UHGV virus genome: UHGV-0123126 | DNA from: a virus | Length of the DNA stretch: 39,300 nucleotides | Direction: 5' to 3' (one strand) | Shown here: in pieces, positions 9,051-22,569 of the stretch | How the letters are laid out: the number at the start of each line of letters is the position of its first letter | Position numbering within the stretch: the stretch's first letter is position 1 | Program-made: the position numbers and the translations under genes | The notes under the pieces: generated by a model | What the model saw: only the letters and a program-made list of their open reading frames with translations | Database searches by the model: none | Told to the model about the DNA's origin: nothing

Positions 9051-9275
9051 ATGAAGCAACATCCGAATAAGCATATTCAAGCAGCCATTGACTATGCATT
9101 AAGTAAAGGCTGGATCTGGGTAGCAGCTGGTGGTGCTGCACATTGTTTTTGCAGACTGCGATGCGGTAATCCAGAAGGTGAACACAAAACTCACCAAATG
9201 AGCGTATGGTCGACTCCGGGTAATCCCGAAAACCATGCCAAACAGATCAAACGAATGGTTGATCGTTGTAAATGA
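9051..9275 (+). CDS. Hypothetical Cys/His-rich small protein (74 aa)
   Basis: Strong SD (GGAGG) and promoter upstream; C..C..C and several His residues. Confidence 0.55.
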   Translation: MKQHPNKHIQAAIDYALSKGWIWVAAGGAAHCFCRLRCGNPEGEHKTHQMSVWSTPGNPENHAKQIKRMVDRCK

Positions 9276-9299: not shown

Positions 9300-9335
9300 T
9301 TGCAGAAACTGTCCAACTATCTTCAAAGGAAAACT

Positions 9336-9899
9336 ATGGCGCTTTATAACTTCACTCTGACGCTCTCAGGCGTATCGTATGAGACGGAAGGACTGGAAGA
9401 CGCGCTGTACCAAAACGGCTGTGACGATGCGCTAATTTGCGCATATGGAAACTCCGTCTATGTAGAATTTGACCGCGAAGCACAATCACTTGATGCAGCT
9501 ATCGCATCTGCGGTCGACAATATTGAATCAGCCGGTATCGGTGCAATTGTTGAATCCGTCGACTCGGCTCTTGTGGGCTTAAGCGATATCGCGGAACTGA
9601 CAGACCTGTCTCGCCAGGCAGTGGCGTTGCTCAAAGACGGTAAGCGCGGAAGCGGCGACTTCCCTTGCCCTGTACAACGCATAAAAGGCCAGTCTCCTCT
9701 CTGGGATTGGGCTGATGTGGCTGAATGGCTCATGAATAACGGACGACTTAAAGAGGGCGATCAAATTGTCCAAAATGCCCGAACTTTGAGTAAATGGAAT
9801 CTGGCGCTTCGAAACAGCGTCTCGAAAGATTTCAACGAAATAGAGCAAATTGCGGAGAAACTGATTAAACGCCGCAAAGATATTGCGAAATGCGCATAA
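9336..9899 (+). CDS. Hypothetical protein with a possible C-terminal helix-turn-helix (track ORF begins at an upstream TTG, 9300)
   Basis: ATG at 9336 preceded by AAGGA; HTH-like segment LSDIAELTDLSRQAVALL; followed by hairpin GCCCGCC-AATT-GGCGGGC at 9903..9922. Confidence 0.55.
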   Translation: MALYNFTLTLSGVSYETEGLEDALYQNGCDDALICAYGNSVYVEFDREAQSLDAAIASAVDNIESAGIGAIVESVDSALVGLSDIAELTDLSRQAVALLKDGKRGSGDFPCPVQRIKGQSPLWDWADVAEWLMNNGRLKEGDQIVQNARTLSKWNLALRNSVSKDFNEIEQIAEKLIKRRKDIAKCA

Positions 9900-10015
9900 T
9901 GATGCCCGCCAATTGGCGGGCATCTGTTCTCTGTAAAGGTGTCTGGCATCGTCTGGTTCGTTAACGTTTACTAAACCAATGGTGACAAAAATTAGTTATC
10001 TTTGAAAAATAAAGG

Positions 10016-10044
10016 TTGCATGAAAAGAAGGGGTATGCGTTAAT
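10016..10044 (+). promoter_or_regulatory. cspA-like promoter (TTGCAT, 17-bp spacer, GTTAAT) with about 180-nt 5' UTR
   Basis: Hexamers at 10016..10021 and 10039..10044; long leader before the csp start mirrors the E. coli cspA arrangement (from memory). Confidence 0.4.
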
Positions 10045-10228
10045 AGCATCGTTGGTTTGCAAGACAGACCTTATGTAAGCAGTTTTAGTAAAGCAGTCTC
10101 AGTTCAGTGTTATCTTCTGATTTCCCTTCTTCGTGAGTCTCCTCCTTAAGTGCCTAAGTAAGTCCCAATCTATACAGATCAAATTCTCGCCGCACTATGT
10201 GGCTCACAAAATTAAGAAGGTAATATCT

Positions 10229-10444
10229 ATGTCTAATAAAATGACTGGTTTAGTAAAATGGTTTAACTCTGATAAAGGCTTTGGCTTTATTTCTCCTGCT
10301 GATGGCAGTAAAGATGTTTTTGTACATTTTTCGGCAATTCAGAGTAATAATTTCCGCACTTTGGAAGAAGGCCAGCAGGTCGAATTCTCTATCGAGAATG
10401 GGGCTAAAGGCCCAGCAGCAGCAAATGTCGTTGCTCTAAGCTGA
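10229..10444 (+). CDS. Cold-shock protein, CspA family (CspB/G/I-like), 71 aa
   Basis: [38 protein letters not shown]... carries the RNP1/RNP2 motifs of CspA-family proteins; the track ORF is extended upstream. Confidence 0.9.
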
Positions 10445-10720
10445 TTCAACGCTGATGATCCTCATTTCTACAATAACGAAGACGGTGTAAGCCTGAGTGG
10501 ATAGATTTGTAGGATTGTACAAGTTGAATAAATTAGCATGGTAAGGCCATGCTAATTAAATCGACACAACGGCCAGTTTATTCCATAAAAGTGAATTGCC
10601 CATTGTGGCGAAATGCGGGGTTGCCGCATGAATAGTCAAAGGCAGAAGCTAACTGCCGGCATGGCAAAACAAAGTGCGTAAGAGGAGTGACTTCCTCAAC
10701 AAGCGCCATAATTCTTTATA

Positions 10721-10749
10721 AACCCGCCAACAGGCGGGTTTTCTTTATT
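10721..10749. terminator. Hairpin AACCCGCC-AACA-GGCGGGTT plus T-rich tail, between csp and the polymerase 3' end
   Basis: Perfect 8-bp stem followed on plus by TTCTTTATT; directly abuts the polymerase stop. Confidence 0.45.
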
Positions 10750-13700
10750 ACTTATTTATTGTCTCCGCGATATCAGCCAGAATGGCCTCCAGTCGCTCTC
10801 CTTCTTCCGGTCGGAAGTACAGGATATTCGGGTTAAATCCGTAGAAGACGGTTGCATCAAGCTCTGGGAAGTACTCCTTACGACCAATCAGATCTGATGG
10901 TTTACTCTTATTGTTAAATAGTGCGGTTGAACGACTACCACACGTCAAAATGTAGGTTGGTCGTACAAGATTAATTTCTTCCCGCATAAAGTCTGTGAAC
11001 TGGCCTATCTCGTCTTTGGTATAGTCTTTCTCTTTGTCCTTAACCTTCTTACAAACACCCGTGACATAAAGATCGCCCATGCGCAGATCTCCAACTGTCA
11101 GTAGTTTTGCCTTAAAGTCGTCGTATCCGTTCTCCATGAAGTAGCCGGTACGAGCGTCATTGCCGTTCGCATTGTCCAGAATGATCATGATTTTGGGTTT
11201 AATACCAATAGTCGGGCGTATCAACTCCTCACCCAAGCCCATTTCAGCCGCCATACGTGTCATGAGTACGTTGATTTCGGCAGAACGCTTAGGATTCATT
11301 TCGAACGGACGTGATGCTTTAACAGCGTCAATGATGAGATTGCCCATCAGCTCAGCCTGGTCGCGCAGTCGTTCAGGATCAGTTGCTGGCAGACTGCCTG
11401 GCTCAATTGACGCAAAAGCCCCTACTTTATGAAGCGACTCGCGTACACGACTGTTACATGCACGCTTCTCGACCGCTTCATCGAATTGTGCCACTGACTC
11501 GAATTTGCCACCAACTTTCTCACGCGCACGCATAATTGCCTGACAACCATTTTCAGAACAGCCTTTCACAGCAGAGAATGGCGCATACAGTGCCTGACTG
11601 CCGTCTTCGAGTGTGCGGATCTCAATTCGGTTAGATGACACATTAACGTCTGGTGGCAATACGCGAATGCCATAGGTCAGCGCATCCTTCACCAGCCCCT
11701 GATGCTTATCCTCGCCCAGAATGGTGAGCGCAGCTGCGAAGAACTCAGCAGGGTAGTGCGTCTTTAGCCACATAGACTGATAACTGATTAAAGAATAAGA
11801 AACGGAGTGTGATTTATTGAACTGATAGGCTCCGTTTTTCTCAAATGCGGTCCAGATCTCCTTCGCTTTCATCTCTGATAGCCCTGGATGTGACGCTGTA
11901 ACGCGTACTGCGTTTATAGGTAGTTTTGCGCCGTGCTCAAGTGCCTCTTCGACAGTTTTCAGAGTTCCGTCTTCGCATTTAAAATGTTCCGCACGGTGAA
12001 TGCGCTGTGTAGTGCCATCTTCCAGCTCAACGTCTATCCAGCCAGCTTGAGCCTGAACGATGAACTTCTCGCCCATGCTCTTCATTTTTTCCATGTTCTT
12101 CTTACCGATTGCGGAACGCACAGCGTCAGCTTCAGCCATTGTGAAGCCGGCAAGCAATCGAGTCGCGTTCATCGTCTGTTCCTGATAGAGAATCACGCCA
12201 TTTGTTTCCGCGGTAAGTTCATCAAGAACGGGGTGTAATGATTCCGGCGTCATAAAGCCTTTGGCGACAGAAACATAGTCATCCAACATGCCTGATTGAA
12301 TTGGCCCCGGCCGGAAGAGCGCAGTTGTAGCGACGACCGTTTTAAAGCTCATTGGCTCAATTCCACCACCTAAATCTTTAAGCAGCTTGCGCATTGGGCC
12401 TGATTCAAGCTGGAAAACACCTTGAGTGTACCCAGCAGCAAAACCATCCAGCACCTTGCGATCTTCAAGAGAAATGGCATCAAGATTGATATCTTCACCT
12501 GTGTTCTCTTTTATGTAGCGTTTTGCACTATCGAGCAAATCGAGAGTTGCCAGGCCAAGCACGTCCAGCTTAATTAGGCCCATAGCCTCGCAGTAACGCT
12601 TGTCAAATGCGATACAACGCGCGTCACCACGGCGCTCAACCGGTGTACGTTCTGTCAGAGGAACACCTGCTACGATCATCCCTGCCGCATGTCTACCAAA
12701 GCCACGCATAAGGCTTTGTAACTTGCAGGCTGCATTGAATGCATCAGGATATTTTGTTGCGTATTTGTCGAGACTTGCCAGTTGTTCGCGCAGTTCTTCC
12801 AATGGAAGGCTATCATCCTCAGCGTTCTTCAGTTCTTTTGATACCGCCATATCTGCGGACTCCACACCATAAATACGAGCGGTGTCACGTAGTGCAGAGG
12901 CTGCGCCCAGGTAGGTGAAGTTCGGAATGCCTGCAACGTAATCTTCGCCGTAGCGTTCATTCAGATACTCGATCACCTCATGGCGACGTGCCTGGCTGAA
13001 GTCCAAATCCGCATCTGGCAAGTCGAGACGCTCAGGGTTGATGAAACGTTCAAACAGAAGACCGTGACGGATAGGGTCGACGTTGGTTATGCCTATGCAC
13101 CATGCCACCAAAGAGCCAGCGGAGGAACCACGACCAGGCCCGACAGGAATGCCAGTTTCACGGCTGTGATTCATCAGATCGCGTACCATCAGGAAGTAAC
13201 CACAAAATCCCAGGCGAGTAAGCGTGTCCATTTCGTACTTAAGTCGCTCAACATAAACCCTGTTCTCAGAAGCCGGTGGTGTGTATCCAAACTCTTTTGT
13301 GGTAAGACGTTTACGCAGCCCTGCAACAGCCAGTTTCATCAGCGTTGCAGGTTCGTCGTCTGCCATCTTGGGCAGTGCTGGTGGCAATTCATGCCAGCGC
13401 CATGTACAGGCTTCGATAATGGAGTCCTGCGTTGTTGAGGCCATTGCAGCTGTTACCGGCACATCCATGCGAACGGAGAAGGCTTTAAGCGCCTCAAGGA
13501 GATGGCGGCGACCATTGACGGCGTTATCTCGCTGGTGGGGTATACGCAGACGATGCGGCTGGTCGATTTTTATGTTGTTCGTAACCATGTGCGCAATGTC
13601 TTTAATGTCTGCATCGTCGATCGATTCGTAATAAGCGGGATAGAACGCTACTGGCTCTATTTTCAGTGCGCTGGCTACTTTCATCGCTCGGACGTTAATC

Positions 13701-14266
13701 TGGTCGTAGAATGGGGTAGGGTGCGGATAAACCACGCTATAGAAGTTGTCTTTCCCGCCCGCTGTAATCAGTGAGCTTATGATTTTTGCAAAATCGTTGC
13801 GTTGGAACACGCTACCGATGTCGGAAGTGAGCAGGATGATGTTGCCTTTGGCATATGTAGAAACCAACTGTTCGAGCGAGAGACGCGGTACAAAGTAGAA
13901 CTGTTCTCGTGTGTTGGCCACCGTCATTAGTTCGCAGATGTCGCGATATCCTTGCTCATTTTTAATTAGAGCGGTAAACGAGTAGTTACGTCCCCGCTCT
14001 AATGATTCCATACATCTCATAGATTCTTTAGCAAGTTTAGCCCGGTGCTCGTATGTGGGATCATCAACGATATTTAGTTTCACACCACAAATAACCGCCA
14101 TGTCGTCACCAGCGGCACGTTGTAGTGGAATAACACTCGCAATATTCATGCTATCTGCTGAAATTACAGCGGTGTAGCCAGCTTCTCTGGCAATCTTCAC
14201 CGCGTTTTCTGCTTTTAGAGCCGACTCCCCAAGTGAGAAGTCAGTTCGAACCATCAGTGCTTTCAT
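10748..14266 (-). CDS. dnaE: DNA polymerase III alpha-subunit-like replicative polymerase (DnaE family, N-terminal PHP domain)
   Basis: 1172-aa ORF with PHP-like N-terminus and overall DnaE-like length and architecture. Confidence 0.9.
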   Translation of the reverse strand: MKALMVRTDFSLGESALKAENAVKIAREAGYTAVISADSMNIASVIPLQRAAGDDMAVICGVKLNIVDDPTYEHRAKLAKESMRCMESLERGRNYSFTALIKNEQGYRDICELMTVANTREQFYFVPRLSLEQLVSTYAKGNIILLTSDIGSVFQRNDFAKIISSLITAGGKDNFYSVVYPHPTPFYDQINVRAMKVASALKIEPVAFYPAYYESIDDADIKDIAHMVTNNIKIDQPHRLRIPHQRDNAVNGRRHLLEALKAFSVRMDVPVTAAMASTTQDSIIEACTWRWHELPPALPKMADDEPATLMKLAVAGLRKRLTTKEFGYTPPASENRVYVERLKYEMDTLTRLGFCGYFLMVRDLMNHSRETGIPVGPGRGSSAGSLVAWCIGITNVDPIRHGLLFERFINPERLDLPDADLDFSQARRHEVIEYLNERYGEDYVAGIPNFTYLGAASALRDTARIYGVESADMAVSKELKNAEDDSLPLEELREQLASLDKYATKYPDAFNAACKLQSLMRGFGRHAAGMIVAGVPLTERTPVERRGDARCIAFDKRYCEAMGLIKLDVLGLATLDLLDSAKRYIKENTGEDINLDAISLEDRKVLDGFAAGYTQGVFQLESGPMRKLLKDLGGGIEPMSFKTVVATTALFRPGPIQSGMLDDYVSVAKGFMTPESLHPVLDELTAETNGVILYQEQTMNATRLLAGFTMAEADAVRSAIGKKNMEKMKSMGEKFIVQAQAGWIDVELEDGTTQRIHRAEHFKCEDGTLKTVEEALEHGAKLPINAVRVTASHPGLSEMKAKEIWTAFEKNGAYQFNKSHSVSYSLISYQSMWLKTHYPAEFFAAALTILGEDKHQGLVKDALTYGIRVLPPDVNVSSNRIEIRTLEDGSQALYAPFSAVKGCSENGCQAIMRAREKVGGKFESVAQFDEAVEKRACNSRVRESLHKVGAFASIEPGSLPATDPERLRDQAELMGNLIIDAVKASRPFEMNPKRSAEINVLMTRMAAEMGLGEELIRPTIGIKPKIMIILDNANGNDARTGYFMENGYDDFKAKLLTVGDLRMGDLYVTGVCKKVKDKEKDYTKDEIGQFTDFMREEINLVRPTYILTCGSRSTALFNNKSKPSDLIGRKEYFPELDATVFYGFNPNILYFRPEEGERLEAILADIAETINK

Positions 14267-14450
14267 GTGTTTTTACCTTTATGGTTTTTTTGATTTTGTC
14301 ATTGGGGAAGCCTACGAACTTCCCATACATCGAAATCGCAACTTCTTTTGCTGATTGGTGACAATCGGGCTTGTCTGGACATACCAGACAAGCCTTACCA
14401 GTTTCAGAAGCAGCGATAAGAGAGCCGAAACATCCTTTACGCACGATCAA
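14241..14450 (-). CDS. Small hypothetical protein (69 aa) coupled between the CobS-like and polymerase genes
   Basis: Start overlaps CobS-like stop, stop overlaps polymerase start; several Cys residues. Confidence 0.35.
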   Translation of the reverse strand: MIVRKGCFGSLIAASETGKACLVCPDKPDCHQSAKEVAISMYGKFVGFPNDKIKKTIKVKTHESTDGSN

Positions 14451-15682
14451 CCAAATATTTTTTGAACAACTTCACGAGCCGCTTGTGCAGAAGCTGAAGG
14501 GAGTTTGTTAATGAAAGAACGCTCAATACCTGTCACAAAGTCGCCTCGCATCATTCCAATCTTGGCCGACAACAAAAGTTCACGAGGGCCAATTGGCTGA
14601 CTGATAAGGTGTTCTTCGTATCCATCGCGAACGATACCGGCAAACTTAACCATCTTTTCTGCGTATTCATCCACGATACCGGCATTTATCAACATGTTGA
14701 TCTCTGCCTCTTTGCTCATGTATTTCACATTCGAAACGATGCCAAAACGCGAAAAGTTCGCGGCGTTCTGGATGTTTGTACCCTGGTACAAGCCGGTTTC
14801 ATCACCAGATCCGTTCGTGTTGCCAGTGCCAATGAAAGCAAACCGTTCATGCGGAGTAATGCGACGCCATTCTGGAGTCGCCTCTTTGATGACCAACGCT
14901 TCACCTTCCAGCACTGGCTGATACACGCCAAGAATCTGTGGAAACGCAAAGTCGTATTCATCCGCGAGGTAAACCCAGCCATGCTTCATTGCGAGCGCAA
15001 GCAAGCCAGGCTCGAAATACGTAGAGCCATCACGCGCCAGAATTTGCCCCGTAACATGTGCCTCTTCCATTGATGCTGTATGTTGGGCACGGATCAACGG
15101 ACGATTGAGCAAAGCACATAGTTGTGTAGGCAATGACGATTTGCCTGTTCCTGCATGACCCCACAAATAGCCAGGTATGCCAAGTTCAAGCATCATGAAA
15201 ATGTCTTTGATCAGTTCGAAGTCGCCATATACGTAGCCCTTCTTCACTTCTGGAACGAACTCTGGAAACGGCGTATTGACGTTGACGCTAACCATGAGCG
15301 GCGTCCCACGTTTTGTTCCGAGTTCTTTCACCGTTACATTTAGCAGTTCGTGAGCTGCGACCAGATCTGTCTTGTACTCAACTGTGCCTGTGTAGCCTGG
15401 GCTACTGGTCACGCCAGATGATTTGGCCATTTCGCTTTTTTGCTCGGCACGTTTAGCTTGAATTGCATCAAGTGCCTTTTTCGATAGCGTTGGTTCATCT
15501 GGAAACTGCGTTGTGTACATTTTCAGTACGGTGTCAGGATCGGCATCTTTTACTGACTCAGGAATGCCCTCGCAATTACCATTGGCTACATGGGACTTAA
15601 AATAGTGAAATGATTTGCCGCACCACTTGCAAACAAGGTAATCAGAAGGATTTTTATCATTTTGCAGTGCAGTAGTAGTCAT
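14447..15682 (-). CDS. cobS: CobS-like / MoxR-family AAA+ ATPase
   Basis: Walker A GHAGTGKSS, Walker B-like VYLADEYD; 411 aa; paired with a downstream vWA protein. Confidence 0.85.
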   Translation of the reverse strand: MTTTALQNDKNPSDYLVCKWCGKSFHYFKSHVANGNCEGIPESVKDADPDTVLKMYTTQFPDEPTLSKKALDAIQAKRAEQKSEMAKSSGVTSSPGYTGTVEYKTDLVAAHELLNVTVKELGTKRGTPLMVSVNVNTPFPEFVPEVKKGYVYGDFELIKDIFMMLELGIPGYLWGHAGTGKSSLPTQLCALLNRPLIRAQHTASMEEAHVTGQILARDGSTYFEPGLLALAMKHGWVYLADEYDFAFPQILGVYQPVLEGEALVIKEATPEWRRITPHERFAFIGTGNTNGSGDETGLYQGTNIQNAANFSRFGIVSNVKYMSKEAEINMLINAGIVDEYAEKMVKFAGIVRDGYEEHLISQPIGPRELLLSAKIGMMRGDFVTGIERSFINKLPSASAQAAREVVQKIFG

Positions 15683-15745
15683 GCGCTTTTCCTTTGTTCT
15701 CTAATGAGCGTTCAAGTTCTTATATAAATATACCATTAACTATGG

Positions 15746-15759
15746 TAAGTAGTTACTTA
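15746..15759. promoter_or_regulatory. Palindrome TAAGTA-GT-TACTTA within conserved GGTAAGTAGTTACTTATC, between the CobT-like and CobS-like genes
   Basis: Near-identical GGTAGGTAGTTACTTACTTATC occurs at 31411..31430 upstream of another minus-strand gene. Confidence 0.4.
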
Positions 15760-15777
15760 TCATTAAGGCTGTTTTAA

Positions 15778-17886
15778 TTACTTCAAAATGATACGAGATA
15801 GTTCAGTAACTACAGATGAACCAAGACTATCAACACTAGTTACCAGGGCATGATTTGCGTAAAATCTCTCCGGTGCATCAGTCATGATGCCAATTGCCAT
15901 CAAATCAATGTCAGTCTGCGTTTCAATTTGCTTCGTAACCGAACGCAAATGGGCGTCAAAACCTCTCCCAACAGCCCACGGCGCGCCATCACTCAGAACA
16001 AGCATGATCTTCCTGTCCTCCAAGCGACCGGAAAATAACGATGCAAGGCTGGCTATGCTTTCACCATCCACGTTATTAAGAAGTGGGAATGTGTAGCCTA
16101 CGCACCCCATACGTGAGCGAACTTCGCGAGAATTTGCTTTTTCATTCCAATTTTTGATGATAGGTAGCATTAAAGATTCAAAGCGAGAGAACTCATATTT
16201 GATAGCCTTAAGTTCTCCTGCTGCCATATGACTGCCAAATGTAGTGAAGCCGGTGATAATGTTGGGAACATTTATTCGATCAAGTGCATCGGCGATGGTA
16301 TATGCACTTGCAAGAGCTAGTTTTATCGTTTCGCCACTCATTGAACCCGATAAATCAATCACTTGTTGAACACAGGCGTTAACGGCTTTAGATTCTTCTT
16401 TTTTACGAAACACGCGATCATCATTCATTGTTAATCTGTAGATACTTGAACCATGAATGCGCCCCCGACGCTGGCCAGGTATAAACTGAACTCTGTTTCT
16501 GCTTGCTATTGCACGTTCCAGGTCTTTTGCCAGCGTCGACGAAACACCTGACGAAAGGTGCTTTTCAATATATTTGTCGAAGAGCTGGTTGCCTTCAGGA
16601 ACGATGCGATAACGGCTGATTGGATATCCACCTAAATCAATATCGGAGAATGTTTTAATAAGCCGTTTGATATGGGCTTCTGCCTGATCAATCGAGCCGA
16701 TGAAGTCGTATGAGCGATTGTATGGCCTGTATTCGCTTTTCGAGCTTTCTGTTAACTCGCTTTTAATCGTTTCGGATAGCGCATCTTCTGTCATGCCTCC
16801 GACTTCATCTTCCATGCTATCCAACTCCTCTAAAGCCTCTTCCAGACTCATTTTTGACGGAGTTGGAATGTCTGAAGAGCCGTCTTCTGTCGATTTTCTT
16901 TTTTCGTGGTCAGTGGTAAATGATTCTGACGCCGCGTTATCAGAAGCACCAGAATCTGATACCTCTTTATCATTTTCTGTATCATCGAATATTGTTTCTG
17001 ATGATTCAGAATTATCTGAATCATCACTGTCGTTATTATCATGTTTGTACTTACTGTGTGATTCTGATTTGATAGATTTGTGATTATCTAACGCTGAGGG
17101 TGTCTCATGATCTTCGTTGTCTTCATTGTTTTCTCCAGAGGCATCCGTCTGGTCAGCGTCTGAAGGATCGGAAGTTTTTCCCGGAGCTGACTCCTTACCT
17201 TTGCTTTCACTTTCAGTGTCTTTGAGGATCTTAGCTATGGTCGCAGCCACCTTTACACAATCCTCGGTGCAAGACATGTTACGCACGGCCACATCGATAC
17301 CATGTTCTTTTAATAATGAAATTGGTTTCTCAATGACAGGCCAATATTCATCCATGAAATCTACGAACGGTGCTTGGCCATCCCAGGCTCTTACAACCGG
17401 ACAGAGAAAGAAGTTTAGAAAAAGCGCGCGCTGATCTTTGCCACAATAAGCAATAGCCTCTGAAGCCTTTGTTTTAAAGACTTTTTCGATTATAAGGCGC
17501 TGAGTTGCCATCAGATTACGTCTTGTTCCGTTAAAGACCTGACCCATTTTTCGCTCGATGAACACGTCTTCTAAGGCATTCCATAGCGACCAGGAAGGAA
17601 CGCGTCCTTTTTCTCTCATTTTGTTGGACACACGAATATCGGTAAACAAAATGTGAGCAACCTCATGATCGAGAAATCCGCGCACAGCATTCATCAATGC
17701 CGGTGTTGCGTTATCCGGGATTGATGGGATGTTTACGAGAATTGGCTCTCCATCATCGTTATAGCGTACATAAGCGTCGTCCCCTCGTTCTGCAACAGGG
17801 ATGTTTTTACCTGAAAGGAGAGCGACTACTCGTTTTACACTGTCACGGAAGTCCTGAACCTCTTTGATGGAACGTTTTTTAGACAT
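15778..17886 (-). CDS. cobT: CobT-like von Willebrand factor A (vWA) domain protein with long acidic low-complexity linker
   Basis: 702 aa; MIDAS-like DLSGSMSGE; Ser/Asp/Glu-rich segment around residues 220-370; directly upstream of the AAA+ partner. Confidence 0.8.
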   Translation of the reverse strand: MSKKRSIKEVQDFRDSVKRVVALLSGKNIPVAERGDDAYVRYNDDGEPILVNIPSIPDNATPALMNAVRGFLDHEVAHILFTDIRVSNKMREKGRVPSWSLWNALEDVFIERKMGQVFNGTRRNLMATQRLIIEKVFKTKASEAIAYCGKDQRALFLNFFLCPVVRAWDGQAPFVDFMDEYWPVIEKPISLLKEHGIDVAVRNMSCTEDCVKVAATIAKILKDTESESKGKESAPGKTSDPSDADQTDASGENNEDNEDHETPSALDNHKSIKSESHSKYKHDNNDSDDSDNSESSETIFDDTENDKEVSDSGASDNAASESFTTDHEKRKSTEDGSSDIPTPSKMSLEEALEELDSMEDEVGGMTEDALSETIKSELTESSKSEYRPYNRSYDFIGSIDQAEAHIKRLIKTFSDIDLGGYPISRYRIVPEGNQLFDKYIEKHLSSGVSSTLAKDLERAIASRNRVQFIPGQRRGRIHGSSIYRLTMNDDRVFRKKEESKAVNACVQQVIDLSGSMSGETIKLALASAYTIADALDRINVPNIITGFTTFGSHMAAGELKAIKYEFSRFESLMLPIIKNWNEKANSREVRSRMGCVGYTFPLLNNVDGESIASLASLFSGRLEDRKIMLVLSDGAPWAVGRGFDAHLRSVTKQIETQTDIDLMAIGIMTDAPERFYANHALVTSVDSLGSSVVTELSRIILK

Positions 17887-17984
17887 GGCTAATCCTTTGT
17901 TATGAAAACAAATTATTTACTAGTGTGTTTAATGTAGCACTGCGCGAACAGGGAACTAAGCCATTCGCGCAGGGAGAAGAGGGG

Positions 17985-18197
17985 TTAACAGATTCTGACG
18001 GCTAAAGACCCGGAGCCGGTATTGAGAAGCGTGAAGCGTTTGTTGTTAAGTTCGAATATAAAGCCAGTTGTGTCATTCACACCAACCTGAATCTGCTCAT
18101 TCGGTAGATCGGTGAGGATGTCAGCTACACACTCATCAGCTAATTTCTGTACGTGTCCGATCTCAAGAGCGATTAGGCTGGAAATAGTGGTGTTCAT
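17985..18197 (-). CDS. Hypothetical small protein, first gene of the cobT-cobS-dnaE operon
   Basis: 70-aa ORF preceded by TATAAGT-type A/T-rich motif. Confidence 0.45.
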   Translation of the reverse strand: MNTTISSLIALEIGHVQKLADECVADILTDLPNEQIQVGVNDTTGFIFELNNKRFTLLNTGSGSLAVRIC

Positions 18198-18374
18198 TCA
18201 ATCAATCCATTCTAACTTATACTATGGTAAGGAATACTACTAAAATCTATATCAATACTGAATACATTCATATCATATGCAAGTTGATTTTCTTACCTGT
18301 TTTGGGCTAATTTTTCTCCGTGCAATGGCCTTTAACCGGTCTTTTAAGTGCCTATCGAAAAAAATGATAATAGC

Positions 18375-18417
18375 TTTACAACCCTAACCTTTGATGTAAT
18401 ATCGGTAAGCACTTACC
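18375..18417 (+). promoter_or_regulatory. Sigma70-type promoter (TTTACA, 16-bp spacer, TAATAT) followed by palindrome GGTAAGCACTTACC
   Basis: Hexamers at 18375..18380 and 18397..18402; 14-bp palindrome at 18404..18417; divergent intergenic region. Confidence 0.45.
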
Positions 18418-18448
18418 AGAGAGAATTGAACGCGCAAAGGTTGTAACC

Positions 18449-18835
18449 ATGTCTGATAACAAGATTGAATTTATAGAAAGTCGCTACGCTGCTTTTATCG
18501 CAGGGTTGATTGAATCCTCACCTATGAGCCAGGCCCAGATAGCCAAAACAATTGGGTATAAAAACGCCAACAACCTTTCTTTAATTAAAAGCGGCAAAAT
18601 TCCTTTGCCTATCGATAAGGTTCGTCCGCTGGCGCTGGCACTGGGCATTGAGCCAAGTCGTCTTATGATGATGGTGCTGGAAGAACGCCAACCCGAACTC
18701 GCAGCATTTTTATACAAAGAAGGCACTGCTCCTCTTAACGAGGACGAAAAACAGGTTCTTGCTGCATATAACGAGCGATTCGGTAAAGAGAAAGGCGCAT
18801 CACAAAAGGTTGTTGAGGCCATAAAGTCTCTATGA
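18449..18835 (+). CDS. Helix-turn-helix (XRE-like) transcriptional regulator
   Basis: 128 aa; HTH segment SQAQIAKTIGYKNANNLSLIKSGK; divergent from the replication operon, convergent with the recombinase. Confidence 0.7.
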   Translation: MSDNKIEFIESRYAAFIAGLIESSPMSQAQIAKTIGYKNANNLSLIKSGKIPLPIDKVRPLALALGIEPSRLMMMVLEERQPELAAFLYKEGTAPLNEDEKQVLAAYNERFGKEKGASQKVVEAIKSL

Positions 18836-19933
18836 AAAATTTACACGAATAAGCTCTGTTGATAGACGATCTCCCTTAAATTTGTGGTCAATTTCGTCTA
18901 AATCCGGTTGCTCTACGATTGATGCGATGTACGTCGAGAAACTTTCTAAGGCGTCTCGCATCTCGTCCATATAATCGTGCCGGTCGTAGACCCGATCTAT
19001 CCCCTCAAGACTGTGGTTCATGATTTTACGTGATACCTCCTGGCTTATGCCTAATGCTGGGAAGTAACTACGCGCAGTACGGCGCAAATCTCGGGGTGTA
19101 AATGGCTCAAGCTCCATCAGTTCTGGTCGTTCCAGAATACGACGTAATGCCTGGGCTATTGCCACTTTAGACATAGGAAGGTCTTTCCCGATTTTTTTAT
19201 TCGAAGGCACGAGCCACTGGCTGTCTTTACCATATTCGAACAACTCTTCAATACAAGTGCGCATTAATGAGCTTAAAGGCAGAGAATGCTCACGGGCAGA
19301 TTTGTTCCTCTTGCCTTGATTCCAAACCCCACGCTTAAGATTGAACTCACTTTTTTTAGCCCGCAGTACTTCGTCAGGTCGTCTTGCGGATACAAGACAT
19401 AGCCTGGCCGCCCATTTTGTACCAGCGCACACATTGAAGTAGTCCCATATATTCCAGAACACCCATACCTCTGCGTCGGTCAGCTTCCGCTCGCGAGGTG
19501 TGGGCTTTGCGCCACCGGCAACTTTGTTAAGTGACATATCGTTTAACGGTGACACGTCTATCATCCCCTGGAAGGCGCACCAGCTAAGGAACTGCTTCAT
19601 CAGAGAGAAAACGCGGCGGCCCATAACAATTTTGCCATCCAGTATTAGTGGGTTGACCAGTTGGTTCACCATGAACCTATTAATGTCACTTACTTTTACA
19701 TCGGCAATGTGCGGCAAAACATGTATCAAAATACAATGAACAGCGATCTCTGGCCGACGTCTGGTTATCAGCAGAGATAAGCGAGTGAATAACATGAATG
19801 CGTCCGAGAATCTCATGTCATTGCTGACCTGGGAGATCATAACGGCCTGCATTTGAGATGCTCTTTCGAGATACTCTATCGCCTCTTTTGAGGTGTTCTC
19901 CGCAGCGCGTGCTCTGTCAAAGCTATTTTTCAT
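18830..19933 (-). CDS. Tyrosine recombinase / integrase family protein
   Basis: C-terminal catalytic region RDLRRTARSYF ... MNHSLEGIDRVYDRHDY (R..H..Y pattern); 367 aa. Confidence 0.8.
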   Translation of the reverse strand: MKNSFDRARAAENTSKEAIEYLERASQMQAVMISQVSNDMRFSDAFMLFTRLSLLITRRRPEIAVHCILIHVLPHIADVKVSDINRFMVNQLVNPLILDGKIVMGRRVFSLMKQFLSWCAFQGMIDVSPLNDMSLNKVAGGAKPTPRERKLTDAEVWVFWNIWDYFNVCAGTKWAARLCLVSARRPDEVLRAKKSEFNLKRGVWNQGKRNKSAREHSLPLSSLMRTCIEELFEYGKDSQWLVPSNKKIGKDLPMSKVAIAQALRRILERPELMELEPFTPRDLRRTARSYFPALGISQEVSRKIMNHSLEGIDRVYDRHDYMDEMRDALESFSTYIASIVEQPDLDEIDHKFKGDRLSTELIRVNFS

Positions 19934-19959
19934 ATGACAATCACCGAGTTACGCCGATG

Positions 19960-19979
19960 CACTGTATAAGTAAACAGTA
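19960..19979. promoter_or_regulatory. LexA-box-like site CACTGTATAAGTAAACAGTA (CTGT-N8-ACAG)
   Basis: Fits CTGT-N8-ACAG with A/T-rich spacer; about 30 bp upstream of the recombinase start. Confidence 0.4.
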
Positions 19980-20031
19980 TATTAGGCATAGATTCTTATA
20001 GGATCAAGAGTAAAAGTAACTCATTTTCAGC

Positions 20032-20064
20032 AATGATTCCATACATAGTAGGTATGGAATCATT
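20032..20064. repeat. Perfect 13-bp inverted repeat AATGATTCCATAC-(7 bp)-GTATGGAATCATT; lox/dif-like candidate core site
   Basis: 13-bp arms with 7-bp spacer, about 100 bp upstream of the tyrosine recombinase gene. Confidence 0.45.
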
Positions 20065-20143
20065 TTGACGTTGTTTTTTGAATTTTAAGGGAAACGGGAG
20101 TGAGTTTGGTGGGAATAAAAACGGCTCCTGTGAGCCGTTAAAA

Positions 20144-20389
20144 TCAGAGGGTGCTGACGTATGCAGCCAGTTCTGTGTATCCGCCAATCGGTTGGCCATC
20201 GATCAGCACTTGGGGGATAGTCTCTACCGGTTTACCAACAATTTCACTTAGTTTTTCCTTGTCGATACCGGCAGTGGTGATGTCGATGTACTCATAATCA
20301 CCGTAGCCATGTCCCTTTAGTTGCTTCGCCAGCTCGACCGCACGTTTGCAGTATGAGCAGTTATCTCGTCCGTAGATAGTGATCGTCAT
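20144..20389 (-). CDS. Glutaredoxin-like protein (CxxC thioredoxin fold)
   Basis: MTITIYGRDNCSYCKRAVELAK...; GAGG SD before the internal ATG; track ORF extended upstream. Confidence 0.75.
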   Translation of the reverse strand: MTITIYGRDNCSYCKRAVELAKQLKGHGYGDYEYIDITTAGIDKEKLSEIVGKPVETIPQVLIDGQPIGGYTELAAYVSTL

Positions 20390-20563
20390 TGTTACCTCAT
20401 AGAATTGATATGCAACTTTACTTACAAAGAAGATAGGTGTGTGCATACTTATCTTTACAGTCTGCATTATAAAGCTATTAAAGCCTCGATCAATCTATTA
20501 ATTAAGGCATTGTTTGGTTAACATTAGCCTAATATTTTATAGTTAGTAGAGTGAAATACATAC

Positions 20564-21826
20564 ATGCCTTTTTTAATTTTCATTATTATACTACTGCTCA
20601 CCGTCATTTTTTGGGATTGGGTTGTTTTAAATGGTCAAACTGTTGGAACATTGGCTACAGCATTTGCTTTTATAGCAACAGCATGGAATGCCTACGAAGC
20701 GAGAAAAAGTGCAAAAGCAGCTTTTTCAGCCCTTCAATTAACAACTGAATCATTGTTCGAAATGCGAAAGAGTGCATTTAAACAATGGTTTGATTCCTTA
20801 TTAAATCAACATGATGAGTTATGTCTTCTTGCAAAACAAATTATCGATAAACACAAAATTAATTTAAACAGCGATGAGTTACATAGACTATATTATCCAT
20901 TGGTAAGACAGCATGAGGTAATACAGTATGTGAAGCATATTATTAATATATTTGAGTATGTGGATGGTTCATTTTATATTGATGGGGAATGTCTCAAGGA
21001 AAAAAGAGCGTATGTGTCACAATTAATTTTTAAAATCCCACCTCAGATGAAGTTGATCATTGCTATCTTTGGATTAAAAATCGATTATTGTGAACATATT
21101 AATTCGGAAAAACTGTGTTGTTTATTGAATAAATATGATTTTTTCAATGATGAAATATTTTTTGATGATGCTTATTCAAATATGCCTTATCTGGATACAT
21201 TCATAAACCTTAGATTCAACAAAATATTCAAATCTCGAATGATAAATTATTTTGATAATATCATTAAAAGTTATTATGTTCCATCGGACGTTAAAAGGGA
21301 CTGGATGTTTCGACACCCAAAGCTCGTACCGTCGGTTCTTATGAATTATAAAACTCCTTGTTCTCCTATAATTAATGATTACTTTGAGAAGTTGCCTTTA
21401 CATGTAAGAAACTACTTTGAGGAACTACTTAAAACCGCGAATGATAGAGTTACTCATTTTGACGTTTACATCCCACGCCTTATTGGTTGTTCAATCGTGC
21501 AACATTACGAAGATGTGCCTTCCGAAAAAAACAGGTTAAATGACAGGAATGATGTAATAGCTATGGCTGAAGATTACATCGAGAAAAGAAAATCTAATCA
21601 ACTAGATTACATACTTGAAGATATATACTTTAAGAGTGACGAAGATATAATCCCAGGCCACCATTTAATTGTGGCATTTGATGACTATGAATATAAATTA
21701 GCACTAATTAAGATAAATGAAAATAAAGATAACGATAATCTTTTAAATCGAATTTATACTGAATCCAGTAGCATGGTTAATGAATATAAGCGCGAAATAT
21801 TAAAATTGGGCGACTATGCAAAGTAA
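20564..21826 (+). CDS. AT-rich membrane-anchored protein of unknown function (two N-terminal TM helices, about 370-aa cytoplasmic domain); candidate abortive-infection/defence protein
   Basis: 420-aa ORF with GC content clearly lower than flanking DNA; only long plus-strand gene here; own terminator. Confidence 0.65.
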   Translation: MPFLIFIIILLLTVIFWDWVVLNGQTVGTLATAFAFIATAWNAYEARKSAKAAFSALQLTTESLFEMRKSAFKQWFDSLLNQHDELCLLAKQIIDKHKINLNSDELHRLYYPLVRQHEVIQYVKHIINIFEYVDGSFYIDGECLKEKRAYVSQLIFKIPPQMKLIIAIFGLKIDYCEHINSEKLCCLLNKYDFFNDEIFFDDAYSNMPYLDTFINLRFNKIFKSRMINYFDNIIKSYYVPSDVKRDWMFRHPKLVPSVLMNYKTPCSPIINDYFEKLPLHVRNYFEELLKTANDRVTHFDVYIPRLIGCSIVQHYEDVPSEKNRLNDRNDVIAMAEDYIEKRKSNQLDYILEDIYFKSDEDIIPGHHLIVAFDDYEYKLALIKINENKDNDNLLNRIYTESSSMVNEYKREILKLGDYAK

Positions 21827-21844
21827 ATTGCACTGTTCAACAAA

Positions 21845-21871
21845 AAAGGGGCCGAAGCCCCTTTGAATTTT
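21845..21871 (+). terminator. Rho-independent terminator (AAAGGGGC-CGAA-GCCCCTTT)
   Basis: GC-rich hairpin then TTTGAATTTT, 20 nt after the AT-rich gene stop. Confidence 0.55.
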
Positions 21872-21938
21872 GCGCTGAAAAAAGTGTTGCTAGGATGTTA
21901 GCAAGCTATGGTTAAGAACGTCTGCCGTAATTATCTAT

Positions 21939-22016
21939 CACAGCGTTGAGCGGTCTGGTTTATGTTAGCGGAGTCTTAATCGAGTTGATTAAAAGGCCAA
22001 ACCGCTCAACGCTGTG
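21939..22016. repeat. 16-bp perfect inverted repeat CACAGCGTTGAGCGGT / ACCGCTCAACGCTGTG, 46-bp spacer with nested palindrome
   Basis: Arms at 21939..21954 and 22001..22016; directly abuts the 3' end of tRNA-Ser. Confidence 0.6.
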
Positions 22017-22018
22017 TC

Positions 22019-22105
22019 TGGCGGAGAGTAATGGAATCGAACCATCATCGTTTGCACAATGGGACGGTTTTCAAGACCGCTTGAGCACCATGCTCCCTAC
22101 TCTCC
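22019..22105 (-). tRNA. tRNA-Ser (anticodon UGA), class II with long variable arm, CCA encoded
   Basis: Hand-folded: acceptor GGAGAGT/ACTCTCC, anticodon loop CTTGAAA, T-loop TTCGATT, discriminator G + CCA. Confidence 0.6.
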
Positions 22106-22322
22106 AATTGTTGTGGTTACCGGTACTGATCTCCGGCTTAGCGACCCCGGCTACTGACTGCATTGCAGTGTGTGAACTCGCCTCGTGTGTCGCTGGGGCA
22201 TTTCTTTCCGCGCATCAGTCTGCGCATCAACCACAACGAAAAGAGCACTGTATGACGTTTGCACGGACTTACGCTTAAAACAGGGCAGTCTCGGCGGTTT
22301 TCAATGCTCTTTCCTGTTGTGT

Positions 22323-22398
22323 TGGTGCCGGTTAACGGACTCGAACCGCTGACATCCTGCTTACAAGGCAGGCGCTCTACCAACTGAGCTAAACCGGC
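22323..22398 (-). tRNA. tRNA-Thr (anticodon UGU), CCA encoded
   Basis: Hand-folded: acceptor GCCGGTT/AACCGGC, D-arm GCTC..GAGC, anticodon stem CCTGC/GCAGG with loop CTTGTAA, T-loop TTCGAGT. Confidence 0.8.
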
Positions 22399-22402
22399 AA
22401 TT

Positions 22403-22489
22403 TGGTGGGGAGTGATGGAGTCGAACCACCCGAGTCGCCATGACAGTAGATTTACAGTCTACACCGCTACCTCTACGGACTAACTCCCC
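22403..22489 (-). tRNA. tRNA-Tyr (anticodon GUA), long variable arm, CCA encoded
   Basis: Hand-folded: acceptor GGGGAGT/ACTCCCC, anticodon stem GTAGA/TCTAC with loop CTGTAAA, T-loop TTCGACT. Confidence 0.8.
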
Positions 22490-22494
22490 TAAAT

Positions 22495-22569
22495 TGGCGA
22501 TGGTGGGTGGATTCGAACCACCGACCAGTTGGTTAACAGCCAACTGCTCTACCGCTGAGCTACACCATC
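22495..22569 (-). tRNA. tRNA-Asn (anticodon GUU), CCA encoded
   Basis: Hand-folded: acceptor GATGGTG/CACCATC, anticodon stem GTTGG/CCAAC with loop CTGTTAA, T-arm GGTGG-TTCGAAT-CCACC. Confidence 0.8.

Follow-up and report, generated by a model that had tools for sequence, protein, structure and literature searches.

Organization of the gene block

The viral genome sequence UHGV-0123126 (39,300 nucleotides, referred to below as the window) carries a pair of genes resembling cobT and cobS beside the gene for a DnaE-type DNA polymerase. The block consists of five minus-strand open reading frames (ORFs), in the order ORF70 (70 residues, 17985-18197), a CobT-like protein (702 residues, 15778-17886), a CobS-like MoxR AAA+ ATPase (411 residues, 14447-15682), the small four-cysteine protein ORF69 (69 residues, 14241-14450) and a DnaE-type family-C polymerase (1172 residues, 10748-14266). 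The region from 10000 to 20500 is 99.8% identical to ~110-kb Escherichia coli plasmids; its identity to Escherichia phage Cyrano is 97.6%, and that to Salmonella phage SSU5 about 80%. The element is an SSU5-type phage-plasmid. At least 80% of this region is carried by 196 of 5426 complete E. coli genomes. The Cyrano annotation includes RepA and ParA as plasmid maintenance genes, together with a T4-flavoured replication and recombination set that contains a DnaB-like helicase, primase, ligase, a gp32-like single-stranded DNA-binding protein (SSB), UvsY, a 5'-3' exonuclease and RecA.

The original prediction, made from the letters of the window alone, had described these genes as one operon with overlapping start and stop codons. 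The gene order and the Pfam labels (CobT and CobT_C, AAA_5 and the polymerase domains, the last also recognized by TIGR00594) bear this description out, although its coordinates, 10748-17886, leave out the first small ORF. Both small ORFs are real genes by the measures available: ORF70 matches phrog_2627 (E 9e-41), ORF69 matches phrog_6337 (E 2e-44), and the cysteine motif of ORF69 is kept upstream of DnaE in distant relatives. Overlaps occur at two of the junctions. CobS and ORF69 share 4 nucleotides (nt), TTGA, and ORF69 and DnaE share 26 nt, or 14 nt if counted from the Met-5 start used in the Cyrano annotation; in the window, the CobS-like gene is thus translationally coupled to the polymerase via ORF69. 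The other two junctions are spacers of 98 nt (ORF70-CobT) and 95 nt (CobT-CobS, 15683-15777), and RNA folding found no significant structure in the latter. What had been overlooked altogether are an HExxH motif in the CobT-like protein, a zinc-finger-like N-terminal extension of the CobS-like protein and a C-terminal domain of DnaE that resembles uracil-DNA glycosylase (UDG).

The CobT-like protein carries a conserved metallopeptidase motif

Pfam recognizes the CobT-like protein through CobT (E 1.8e-27) and CobT_C/vWA (E 5.7e-83), and we divided it into three parts, all encoded on the minus strand. A zincin-like N-terminal domain (residues 1-228, 17203-17886) contains the sequences HEVAH (residues 74-78, 17653-17667) and EDVFIE (residues 106-111, 17554-17571). 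The acidic linker that had been noticed from the sequence is indeed present: residues 229-440 (16567-17202) are 25% Asp plus Glu and 16% Ser and are predicted to be disordered, with a pLDDT below 50 in a model of the full-length protein and a length that differs between homologs. The vWA domain (residues 492-701, 15784-16413, Pfam CobT_C) carries a MIDAS (metal ion-dependent adhesion site) with the motifs DLSGS (residues 511-515, 16342-16356), NNVDGES (16057-16077) and SDGAP (15979-15993), and matches the solved CobT vWA domains 21vt and 9uka.

An exhaustive HMMER search recovered 1114 cluster representatives of the CobT-like family at E <= 0.001. Among the matches listed, HExxH was present in 149 of 149 family representatives, and EDxxxE followed about 30 residues later in all 127 full-length ones. 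In 48 members with 27-61% identity to the window protein, residues D73, H74, E75, H78, E106, D107 and E111 of the N-terminal domain and the MIDAS residues D511, S513, S515, D607 and D633 were invariant. The HExxH motif is kept in groups A, B and C of the family; Rhizobium phages, Vibrio phage ICP2, cyanophage Syn19 and other viral-contig lineages have it, as does Gordonia phage Woes. Searching the literature for "CobT" together with "HEXXH" found nothing related. The conserved HExxH...E arrangement points to proteolysis rather than a pure chaperone role, to judge from the sequences.

We modeled the N-terminal domain with AlphaFold2 (AF2) from an alignment of 85 sequences (pLDDT 91.4, pTM 0.87). 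In the predicted order of elements, a long helix and a small beta-sheet are followed by the HExxH helix (residues 62-81) and by a further helix (residues 99-117) that carries E106, D107 and E111. These two helices are placed as in a gluzincin-type zincin, in which a Glu of the later helix would be a candidate third zinc ligand. A Foldseek search of the PDB with this model returned nothing significant, a phmmer search of the PDB with the domain sequence gave chance matches only, and a profile search started from N-domain fragments recovered 23 proteins, most of them partial. In a viral structure library, the same domain was found fused to vWA in many tailed viruses, haloarchaeal ones included. 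The fold evidence is modest: the model is consistent with a zincin but not decisive. The full-length AF2 model, made from an alignment of eight sequences, was poor (pLDDT 46) and was excluded from the fold search.

A profile match between the N-terminal domain and AcrIIA26 (E 0.025) was examined and rejected. It covers the N.VED..IE stretch at 17554-17590 (residues ~100-111) and is weak and local; we took it as chance or purely local resemblance because AcrIIA26 is an acidic DNA mimic with a novel fold (PMC13089141). Xanthomonas phage JGB6 (locus L150) was also set aside, as its annotation is fragmented and the CobT match overlaps features labeled DnaE/PHP. The replication region of the JGB6 record is broken into many short coding sequences (pieces of helicase, primase, DnaE and an AAA ATPase) and is probably a frameshift-rich assembly.

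The CobS-like protein is a MoxR ATPase with an N-terminal extension

The CobS-like protein belongs to Pfam AAA_5 (E 2e-15) and has an intact Walker A motif, GHAGTGKS (residues 175-182, 15137-15160, minus strand), and an intact Walker B motif, YLADE (residues 238-242, 14957-14971, minus strand). Alignment with authentic and viral CobS proteins showed that the CobS-type TGNTNG...GLY signature is intact as well. Among solved structures, it matched CobS (9ujv, E 2e-25), the AAA modules of midasin (E 1e-11), CbbQ (E 5e-6) and NorQ (E 1.5e-3). Its N-terminal region (residues 1-140) contains a zinc-finger-like arrangement, C18-x2-C21...H26-x4-H31, within an extension of about 100 residues that authentic CobS lacks and in which the C-x2-C...H-x4-H pattern is partly degenerate in relatives. 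These sequence features make the protein a MoxR/AAA_5 ring ATPase that belongs to the CobS lineage and carries an additional, zinc-finger-like N-terminus.

The phage pair is not a cobaltochelatase

We next compared the two proteins with the equivalog models of the cobaltochelatase subunits. The CobS-like protein scored 84.8 bits against TIGR01650, which has a cutoff of 558.55, and the CobT-like protein scored 74.4 bits against TIGR01651, which has a cutoff of 759.05. The latter match covers only the vWA part, residues 442-697. For a direct comparison with true CobT, we collected 80 alphaproteobacterial cobT loci using the vWA sequence of solved CobT as the query. None of the 80 authentic proteins has HExxH, and their homologous segment reads RGLGDSMALRKACHD. 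The authentic type of N-terminal domain, RG.GDS.AL....H[DN] without HExxH, is not what the window encodes, which has HEVAH at this place. The viral and authentic domains are nevertheless homologous (hhalign probability 81%, E 1.3e-5), and in the profile-profile alignment the HExxH columns face DSMAL of true CobT. Because the domains are homologous and aligned in this manner, true CobT holds a degenerate form of a domain that is kept intact in the viral family.

The genetic setting also differs. Authentic loci are arranged cobS-cobT, whereas the window has the reverse order, CobT-CobS. The complete Cyrano genome contains no CobN-sized gene; its only coding sequences of at least 1000 residues are those for DnaE, the tape measure protein, tail protein J and a tail fibre. 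The Cyrano ribonucleotide reductase is the class Ia enzyme NrdAB, which is B12-independent. To our knowledge, E. coli itself has no CobN and no de novo cobalamin synthesis, which likewise counts against a chelatase. What the window does encode, in neighboring genes, is an AAA_5/MoxR ATPase together with a vWA/MIDAS protein whose vWA domain is fused to an N-terminal HExxH domain. On the strength of the HExxH contrast, the low equivalog scores, the lack of a CobN-sized gene and the class Ia reductase, we assign the pair to a viral family composed of a MoxR ATPase and a metallopeptidase-vWA protein; as far as sequence can tell, it is not a chelatase and the CobT-like gene does not encode a cobaltochelatase subunit. 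The Cyrano labels "cobalamin synthetase" and "dimethylbenzimidazole phosphoribosyltransferase" (locus L001, 16436-19875) are annotation errors that stem from a name collision with the unrelated CobS and CobT of Salmonella.

The pair recurs in replication modules with three polymerase families

To place the pair in context, we surveyed 60 viral contigs that encode family members, together with their flanks, and found three arrangements. About 25 loci belong to SSU5/Rhizobium-type phages of ~100-110 kb, in which the order is DnaB-primase-ligase-...-CobT-CobS-(sigma-70-like)-CysORF-DnaE-UvsY-SSB-exonuclease-RecA and the polymerase is of family C (DnaE). CobT identity falls to 29% within this group, and DnaE always lies 0.2-2.1 kb downstream of CobS. 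Another ~16 loci are from T4-like cyano- and pelagimyophages, which have a family-B polymerase and the order gp47-gp46-CobT-like-CobS-gp45 clamp-gp44/62 clamp loader. The third set (~12 loci) often has the order CobS-CobT, and the polymerase is of family A where one was seen. Locus L112, for example, reads DnaB-CobS-CobT-PolA-RecA, and in ICP2 the pair lies 4 kb upstream of a split PolA. Because the pair recurs with family C, B and A polymerases, it is linked to the replication and recombination module and not to DnaE specifically. The original prediction tied the pair to the DnaE-like polymerase, but the same pair also stands beside family-B and family-A systems. In L112 (13463-17971), the family-A polymerase gene beside CobS-CobT contains two intein/LAGLIDADG insertions.

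ORF69 and the DnaE-type polymerase

ORF69 contains four cysteines, in the sequence GCFGS and at C21-x2-C24 and C30. It is the short form of a conserved protein of 175-235 residues that is encoded directly upstream of DnaE in related phages (L002 10909-11457, L003 10856-11386 and others). The motif GCFGS...C-x2-C-x5-6-C was found at the N-terminus of the long forms in the majority of distant members of the ~100-kb group. A hidden Markov model (HMM) of the short forms matched the ORF upstream of DnaE at nine distant loci with E values of 3e-6 to 1.5e-3, and at five more with weaker scores. A Pfam search assigned the protein to no family. From its sequence, we regard ORF69 as a conserved polymerase-adjacent partner that is shortened in the enterobacterial subgroup, and as a candidate accessory subunit of the polymerase.

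The polymerase has the PHP, DNA_pol3_alpha (E 9e-74), finger and HHH_6 domains in Pfam. It passes the TIGR00594 superfamily cutoff (625 bits against 434) but fails the equivalog NF004226 (673.5 bits against 1002). It shares with bacterial Pol III alpha the PHP, palm, fingers and helix-hairpin-helix (HhH) regions, as well as a candidate internal clamp-binding motif, QAELM (residues 970-974, 11345-11359, minus strand). The pattern DQxEL[LM] is conserved after the HhH domain, which is the usual place of such a motif. No phage clamp is annotated in Cyrano, and it is plausible that DnaE uses the clamp of the host. Unlike Pol III alpha, it has a conserved four-cysteine protein encoded just upstream, and its C-terminus differs. 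The C-terminal region yielded neither an OB-fold nor a tau-binding domain, and its last 250 residues have no Pfam match. Residues 1016-1168 (10763-11221, minus strand) instead resemble UDG, matching UDG_fam4 with 29.6 bits and PDB entry 4zbx with E 0.014; the score is below the cutoff of the family-4 subfamily model TIGR00758 (29.6 bits against 125.3). The catalytic motifs of family-4 UDG are GE[AG]PG and HPS. These positions are replaced by LDNANG and FNPN in the window and by D.P and (N/S/A)P in relatives, and the UDG-like domain is degenerate.

Three relatives have a DnaE ORF of only ~790 residues (L090 13772-16135, L091 12200-14533 and L103 13735-16122), followed by several kilobases before the next conserved gene. 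This suggests that their polymerase gene is split or interrupted by an intein, an intron or a homing endonuclease.

The block is silent in lysogens

We examined expression in published transcriptomes of uninduced LF82 lysogens of Cyrano (PMC9928086 S1 Table). The CobT-like gene (7.8), the CobS-like gene (6.7) and DnaE (10.1) were at local background, while RepA reached 133 and the adjacent repressor 96; the CYRAN_45 repressor was ~10-fold over background (PMC9928086). Because the three genes are at background when RepA is expressed, the block is not used for replication in the plasmid state. Ciprofloxacin can induce Cyrano and raises its lytic programme 39-fold (PMC9928086), and the CobT-CobS-DnaE block presumably belongs to that programme.

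ORF70 behaves differently from the genes that follow it. Its homolog CYRAN_46 had a value of 20 compared to 7.8 for CobT, was ~28-fold above CobT in macrophage conditions and followed the integrase across conditions, so that in lysogens it is expressed with the integrase and the repressor and not with CobT (PMC9928086). The ORF70-CobT spacer, folded as a 116-nt RNA, gave -24.9 kcal/mol (z = -2.85) and contains a GC-rich hairpin without a U-tract (17940-17972, minus strand). This hairpin, a candidate attenuator or terminator, coincides with the large fall in expression across the spacer in Cyrano lysogens. Given the separate expression of the Cyrano homolog and the stable spacer hairpin, ORF70 is probably a transcription unit of its own. 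ORF70 was detected only in L088-L092 among the 60 contigs, which correspond to the enterobacterial subgroup.

Upstream of ORF70 lies a divergent helix-turn-helix (HTH) regulator gene (18449-18835, plus strand), which matches Pfam HTH_19 below the gathering cutoff as well as the transcriptional regulator family phrog_8, and is the homolog of the Cyrano "putative repressor" CYRAN_45. Its product likely controls the leftward lytic genes. The control region between the two genes (18198-18448) contains the 10-mer TTACCATAGT at 18221-18230. The only other exact copy in the window is in the CobT-CobS spacer upstream of CobS (15739-15748), also on the minus strand, and the two copies could represent a common promoter or operator element. 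Once a single mismatch is tolerated, the 10-mer shows no statistical enrichment in the window, and a consensus promoter scan of the window gave sites no commoner than in shuffled sequence. At the other end of the block, a terminator scan identified a palindromic GC-rich stem-loop (10720-10741; 9-bp stem, 6 GC pairs) between the converging csp and DnaE genes, a probable bidirectional terminator that would also end the DnaE gene.

A proposed function in lytic DNA replication and its alternatives

The original prediction stated that the role of AAA+/vWA pairs in phages is not established, and the literature indeed offers hypotheses only, namely B12 supply (PMC8651126) and virion assembly (PMC7824862). 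It went on to suggest a chaperone or remodelling role in replisome assembly; that role, and physical contact with the polymerase, are conjectural. The pair is built like a remodelling machine, in that the Walker A and B motifs are intact and the MIDAS is invariant, and its genes are persistently linked to those for replication; however, HExxH...E favors proteolysis over a pure chaperone. We propose that the pair uses ATP to cleave or remodel a target held by the vWA MIDAS, and that it acts during lytic DNA replication; we rate the chances of this proposal as roughly even. From the data above, we infer the formation of a complex, its proteolytic activity, its timing after induction and its substrate.

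By analogy with CobS and CobT of the chelatase, and with the ring and MIDAS domain of midasin, the CobS-like ATPase would form a ring onto which the vWA protein docks. The MIDAS would hold a protein substrate by an acidic residue, the energy of ATP hydrolysis would serve to pull on or remodel that substrate, and the tethered HExxH domain would cut it. The genes would be off in the plasmid (lysogenic) state and presumably made together with DnaE and its four-cysteine partner at the start of lytic replication. From the recurrent context, the most likely class of substrate would be a protein bound at or near replicating DNA, which could be a host protein destined for removal or a component of the phage's own replisome or recombination apparatus that needs processing. 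On a further and distinctly tentative reading, the viral CobS/CobT pair, including the cyanophage "cobS", would have no link to cobalamin and would be a MIDAS-targeted, ATP-driven zinc protease associated with replication forks. Such an enzyme may be the counterpart, in logic, of Wss1/SPRTN acting with Cdc48, or may dismantle the host replisome; a DNA-bound protein may be removed or processed so that the phage polymerase takes over.

Several points weigh against a replication protease. Synteny is inherited within phage groups, such that the independent links to replication genes are few, about three to four, and the neighbors of the pair in Gordonia phages are hypothetical genes only and are uninformative. 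Early and middle phage regions mix genes for replication, host takeover and anti-defence, and therefore position does not identify the substrate. The expression values come from a 97.6%-identical relative and from uninduced cells only. HExxH could be a mere metal-binding site, and proteolysis and a CobS-CobT complex are, for every phage, predictions from sequence.

The same machine could also have as its target a host protein with no part in replication, for instance a defence component or a regulator, and its place in the replication block would then merely reflect early expression. All of the domain and motif evidence applies equally to such a host-takeover or anti-defence protease, anti-defence genes are common in early phage regions, and a function of broad use would explain why the pair occurs in very different phages and in hosts that include cyanobacteria, Vibrio, Rhizobium, actinobacteria and haloarchaea. 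The absence of replication neighbors in Gordonia phages also speaks for this alternative. We nonetheless consider this unlikely. PADLOC gave no match of note (a weak DrmE match for CobT, E 5e-4, and none for CobS), the AcrIIA26 similarity is weak and local, and anti-defence genes are usually variable, whereas two large phage groups have this pair among their core genes and in conserved synteny (PMC3037559).

It is improbable that the pair is a non-proteolytic MoxR/vWA activase that, like the chelatase itself, loads a metal or cofactor into an enzyme of the phage or restores its activity, with HExxH serving in metal handling. MoxR/vWA pairs such as NorQ/NorD and CbbQ/CbbO typically mature metalloenzymes, and among MoxR ATPases the CobS-like protein has its nearest kin in the lineage of the chelatase and CbbQ/NorQ. 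Candidate clients are at hand in the PHP domain of the adjoining DnaE and in the di-iron class Ia ribonucleotide reductase NrdAB that SSU5-type phages encode, and of all the alternatives this is nearest to the chaperone first suggested. Known activase vWA partners and CobT lack HExxH, however, and strict conservation of HExxH...E, including the catalytic Glu, is typical of hydrolases. Moreover, the pair occurs with polymerases of families A, B and C, and no single client is evident.

For T4-like jumbo phages, Iyer et al. 2021 suggested a chaperone and protease that helps to assemble the particle and trims structural proteins; the analogy was with the MoxR/vWA system that the Acidianus two-tailed virus needs for tail development (PMC7824862). 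Apart from that analogy, the genetic arrangement makes such a role quite improbable here. Every informative lineage has the pair within its replication and recombination block and well away from the structural genes; in Cyrano, the structural genes occupy 0-27 kb and the pair 43-46.6 kb, and in the window the pair is coupled to the polymerase through ORF69.

The standard annotation, "porphyrin/cobalamin biosynthesis", fits this element worst of all the rivals. In it, viral CobS and CobT would take over host CobN and raise cobalamin for nucleotide synthesis, as hypothesized by Liu et al. 2021 (PMC8651126) and taken for granted in cyanophage ecology (PMC9983427). Pfam and PDB matches that show homology to CobS and CobT at the level of families speak for it, but with equivalog scores far under the cutoffs, an HExxH kept in the phage family and lost in 80 of 80 true CobT proteins, no CobN-sized gene in Cyrano, a reductase that needs no B12 and a reversed gene order, this reading is very improbable and close to refuted for the element. 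A repressor-cleaving protease of the ImmA/IrrE type, considered for the adjacent HTH repressor gene, was set aside as the function in general, since the pair belongs to the core genes of strictly lytic T4-like and ICP2 phages.

Comparison with known systems

The closest relatives of the window pair are the "cobS" and "peptidase" core genes of T4-like cyanophages, which encode the same two proteins with homology over their full length. The Syn19 "peptidase" and the CobT-like protein of the window share 22% identity, with HEVGH of the former and the MIDAS aligned, and cyanophage CobS is ~29% identical to the window CobS. As in the window, the genes are adjacent, in the order CobT-like then CobS, and lie in a replication block. 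Unlike the cyanophage pair, the window pair resides in a temperate E. coli phage-plasmid, is followed by the four-cysteine ORF and DnaE instead of the gp45/44/62 clamp genes, and has the zinc-finger-like extension of CobS. Iyer et al. 2021 described a phage MoxR ATPase with a vWA protein bearing an N-terminal metallopeptidase in group 2.2 jumbo phages (PMC7824862), and Liu et al. 2021 described the viral "cobST" cluster and called the cyanophage "peptidase" label for cobT a mistake (PMC8651126).

The cobaltochelatase CobNST (PDB 9uka and related entries) shares with the window pair the CobS-type AAA_5 ATPase, the fold family of the CobT N-terminal domain, the acidic linker and the vWA/MIDAS domain, and its logic, in which a ring motor acts through a MIDAS domain, is probably the same. 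In contrast to CobNST, the window protein keeps HExxH...E, and the pair is without CobN, in reversed order, with equivalog scores 6-10 times below cutoff, and unaccompanied by a cobalamin pathway or a B12-dependent client. Midasin/Rea1, which functions in eukaryotic ribosome assembly, also combines an AAA_5 ring, a D/E-rich linker and a substrate-gripping MIDAS, and uses ATP hydrolysis to pull its substrate off a complex. It is one giant polypeptide rather than two proteins and has no peptidase domain, and the likeness is one of mechanism and not of membership. NorQ/NorD, CbbQ/CbbO and RavA/ViaA are likewise two-gene modules of an ATPase and a vWA/MIDAS protein that remodel a client protein, but their vWA partners have no HExxH domain and their clients are metabolic metalloenzymes. 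FtsH, and Wss1/SPRTN with Cdc48/p97 at replication forks, pair an AAA+ motor with an HExxH protease in a replication-associated context. There is no detectable sequence homology to these systems, whose ATPases are of another clade, and the resemblance is an analogy only; Wss1 gave a weak Foldseek match (E 2.7).

Significance for viral auxiliary metabolic genes

Few auxiliary metabolic genes of tailed viruses are annotated as widely as "cobS" and "cobT", and in ocean, gut and vent viromes they are usually taken to signify viral manipulation of vitamin B12 supply. The cyanophage "cobS" core gene is in use both as a B12 auxiliary metabolic gene and as a community marker. Our findings on the window pair call into question the vitamin B12 interpretation that such genes have received in many phages. 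Should the pair be a protease and remodeller of the replication phase, these metabolic inferences are wrong, and a widespread and conserved viral function is left unexplained.

The genes are annotated in hundreds of records, and the cobST cluster and the metallopeptidase fusion have each been remarked once in comparative genomics. What is new here is the quantitative motif contrast, in which HExxH is always present in the viral family and always absent in true CobT, and the failure of the chelatase membership tests in a host without the pathway. The context in replication modules across three polymerase families, the lysogenic silence of the block and the conserved four-cysteine partner of DnaE are also new. 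SSU5-type phage-plasmids in E. coli offer a tractable system for the pair; the relative PhiR41_1 is recorded on E. coli K-12. These elements are clinically relevant, as they carry resistance genes (PMC9600943).

Other features of the window

The window RecA homolog (3605-5944, minus strand, 779 residues) is interrupted by an intein that includes a LAGLIDADG homing-endonuclease domain. Not all members of the group have this intein, as RecA of a 97%-identical relative (L088) is a protein of 358 residues without it. Downstream of the block, a HicA/HicB toxin-antitoxin pair (9051-9275 and 9300-9899) is separated from the stem-loop at 10720-10741 by a CspB-like cold-shock gene (10133-10444, plus strand). 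The latter looks like a moron, and related csp genes are present in unrelated E. coli phages.

An AT-rich island at 20000-22000 adjoins the integrase and has a GC content of 0.33-0.37 compared to ~0.46 elsewhere. It contains an ORF of 420 residues (20564-21826, plus strand) for which a Pfam search gave no match, and is possibly acquired cargo. Finally, four tRNA genes, Ser-tga, Thr-tgt, Tyr-gta and Asn-gtt, are clustered at 22019-22569 on the minus strand; Cyrano has only three tRNA genes, without the Tyr tRNA.

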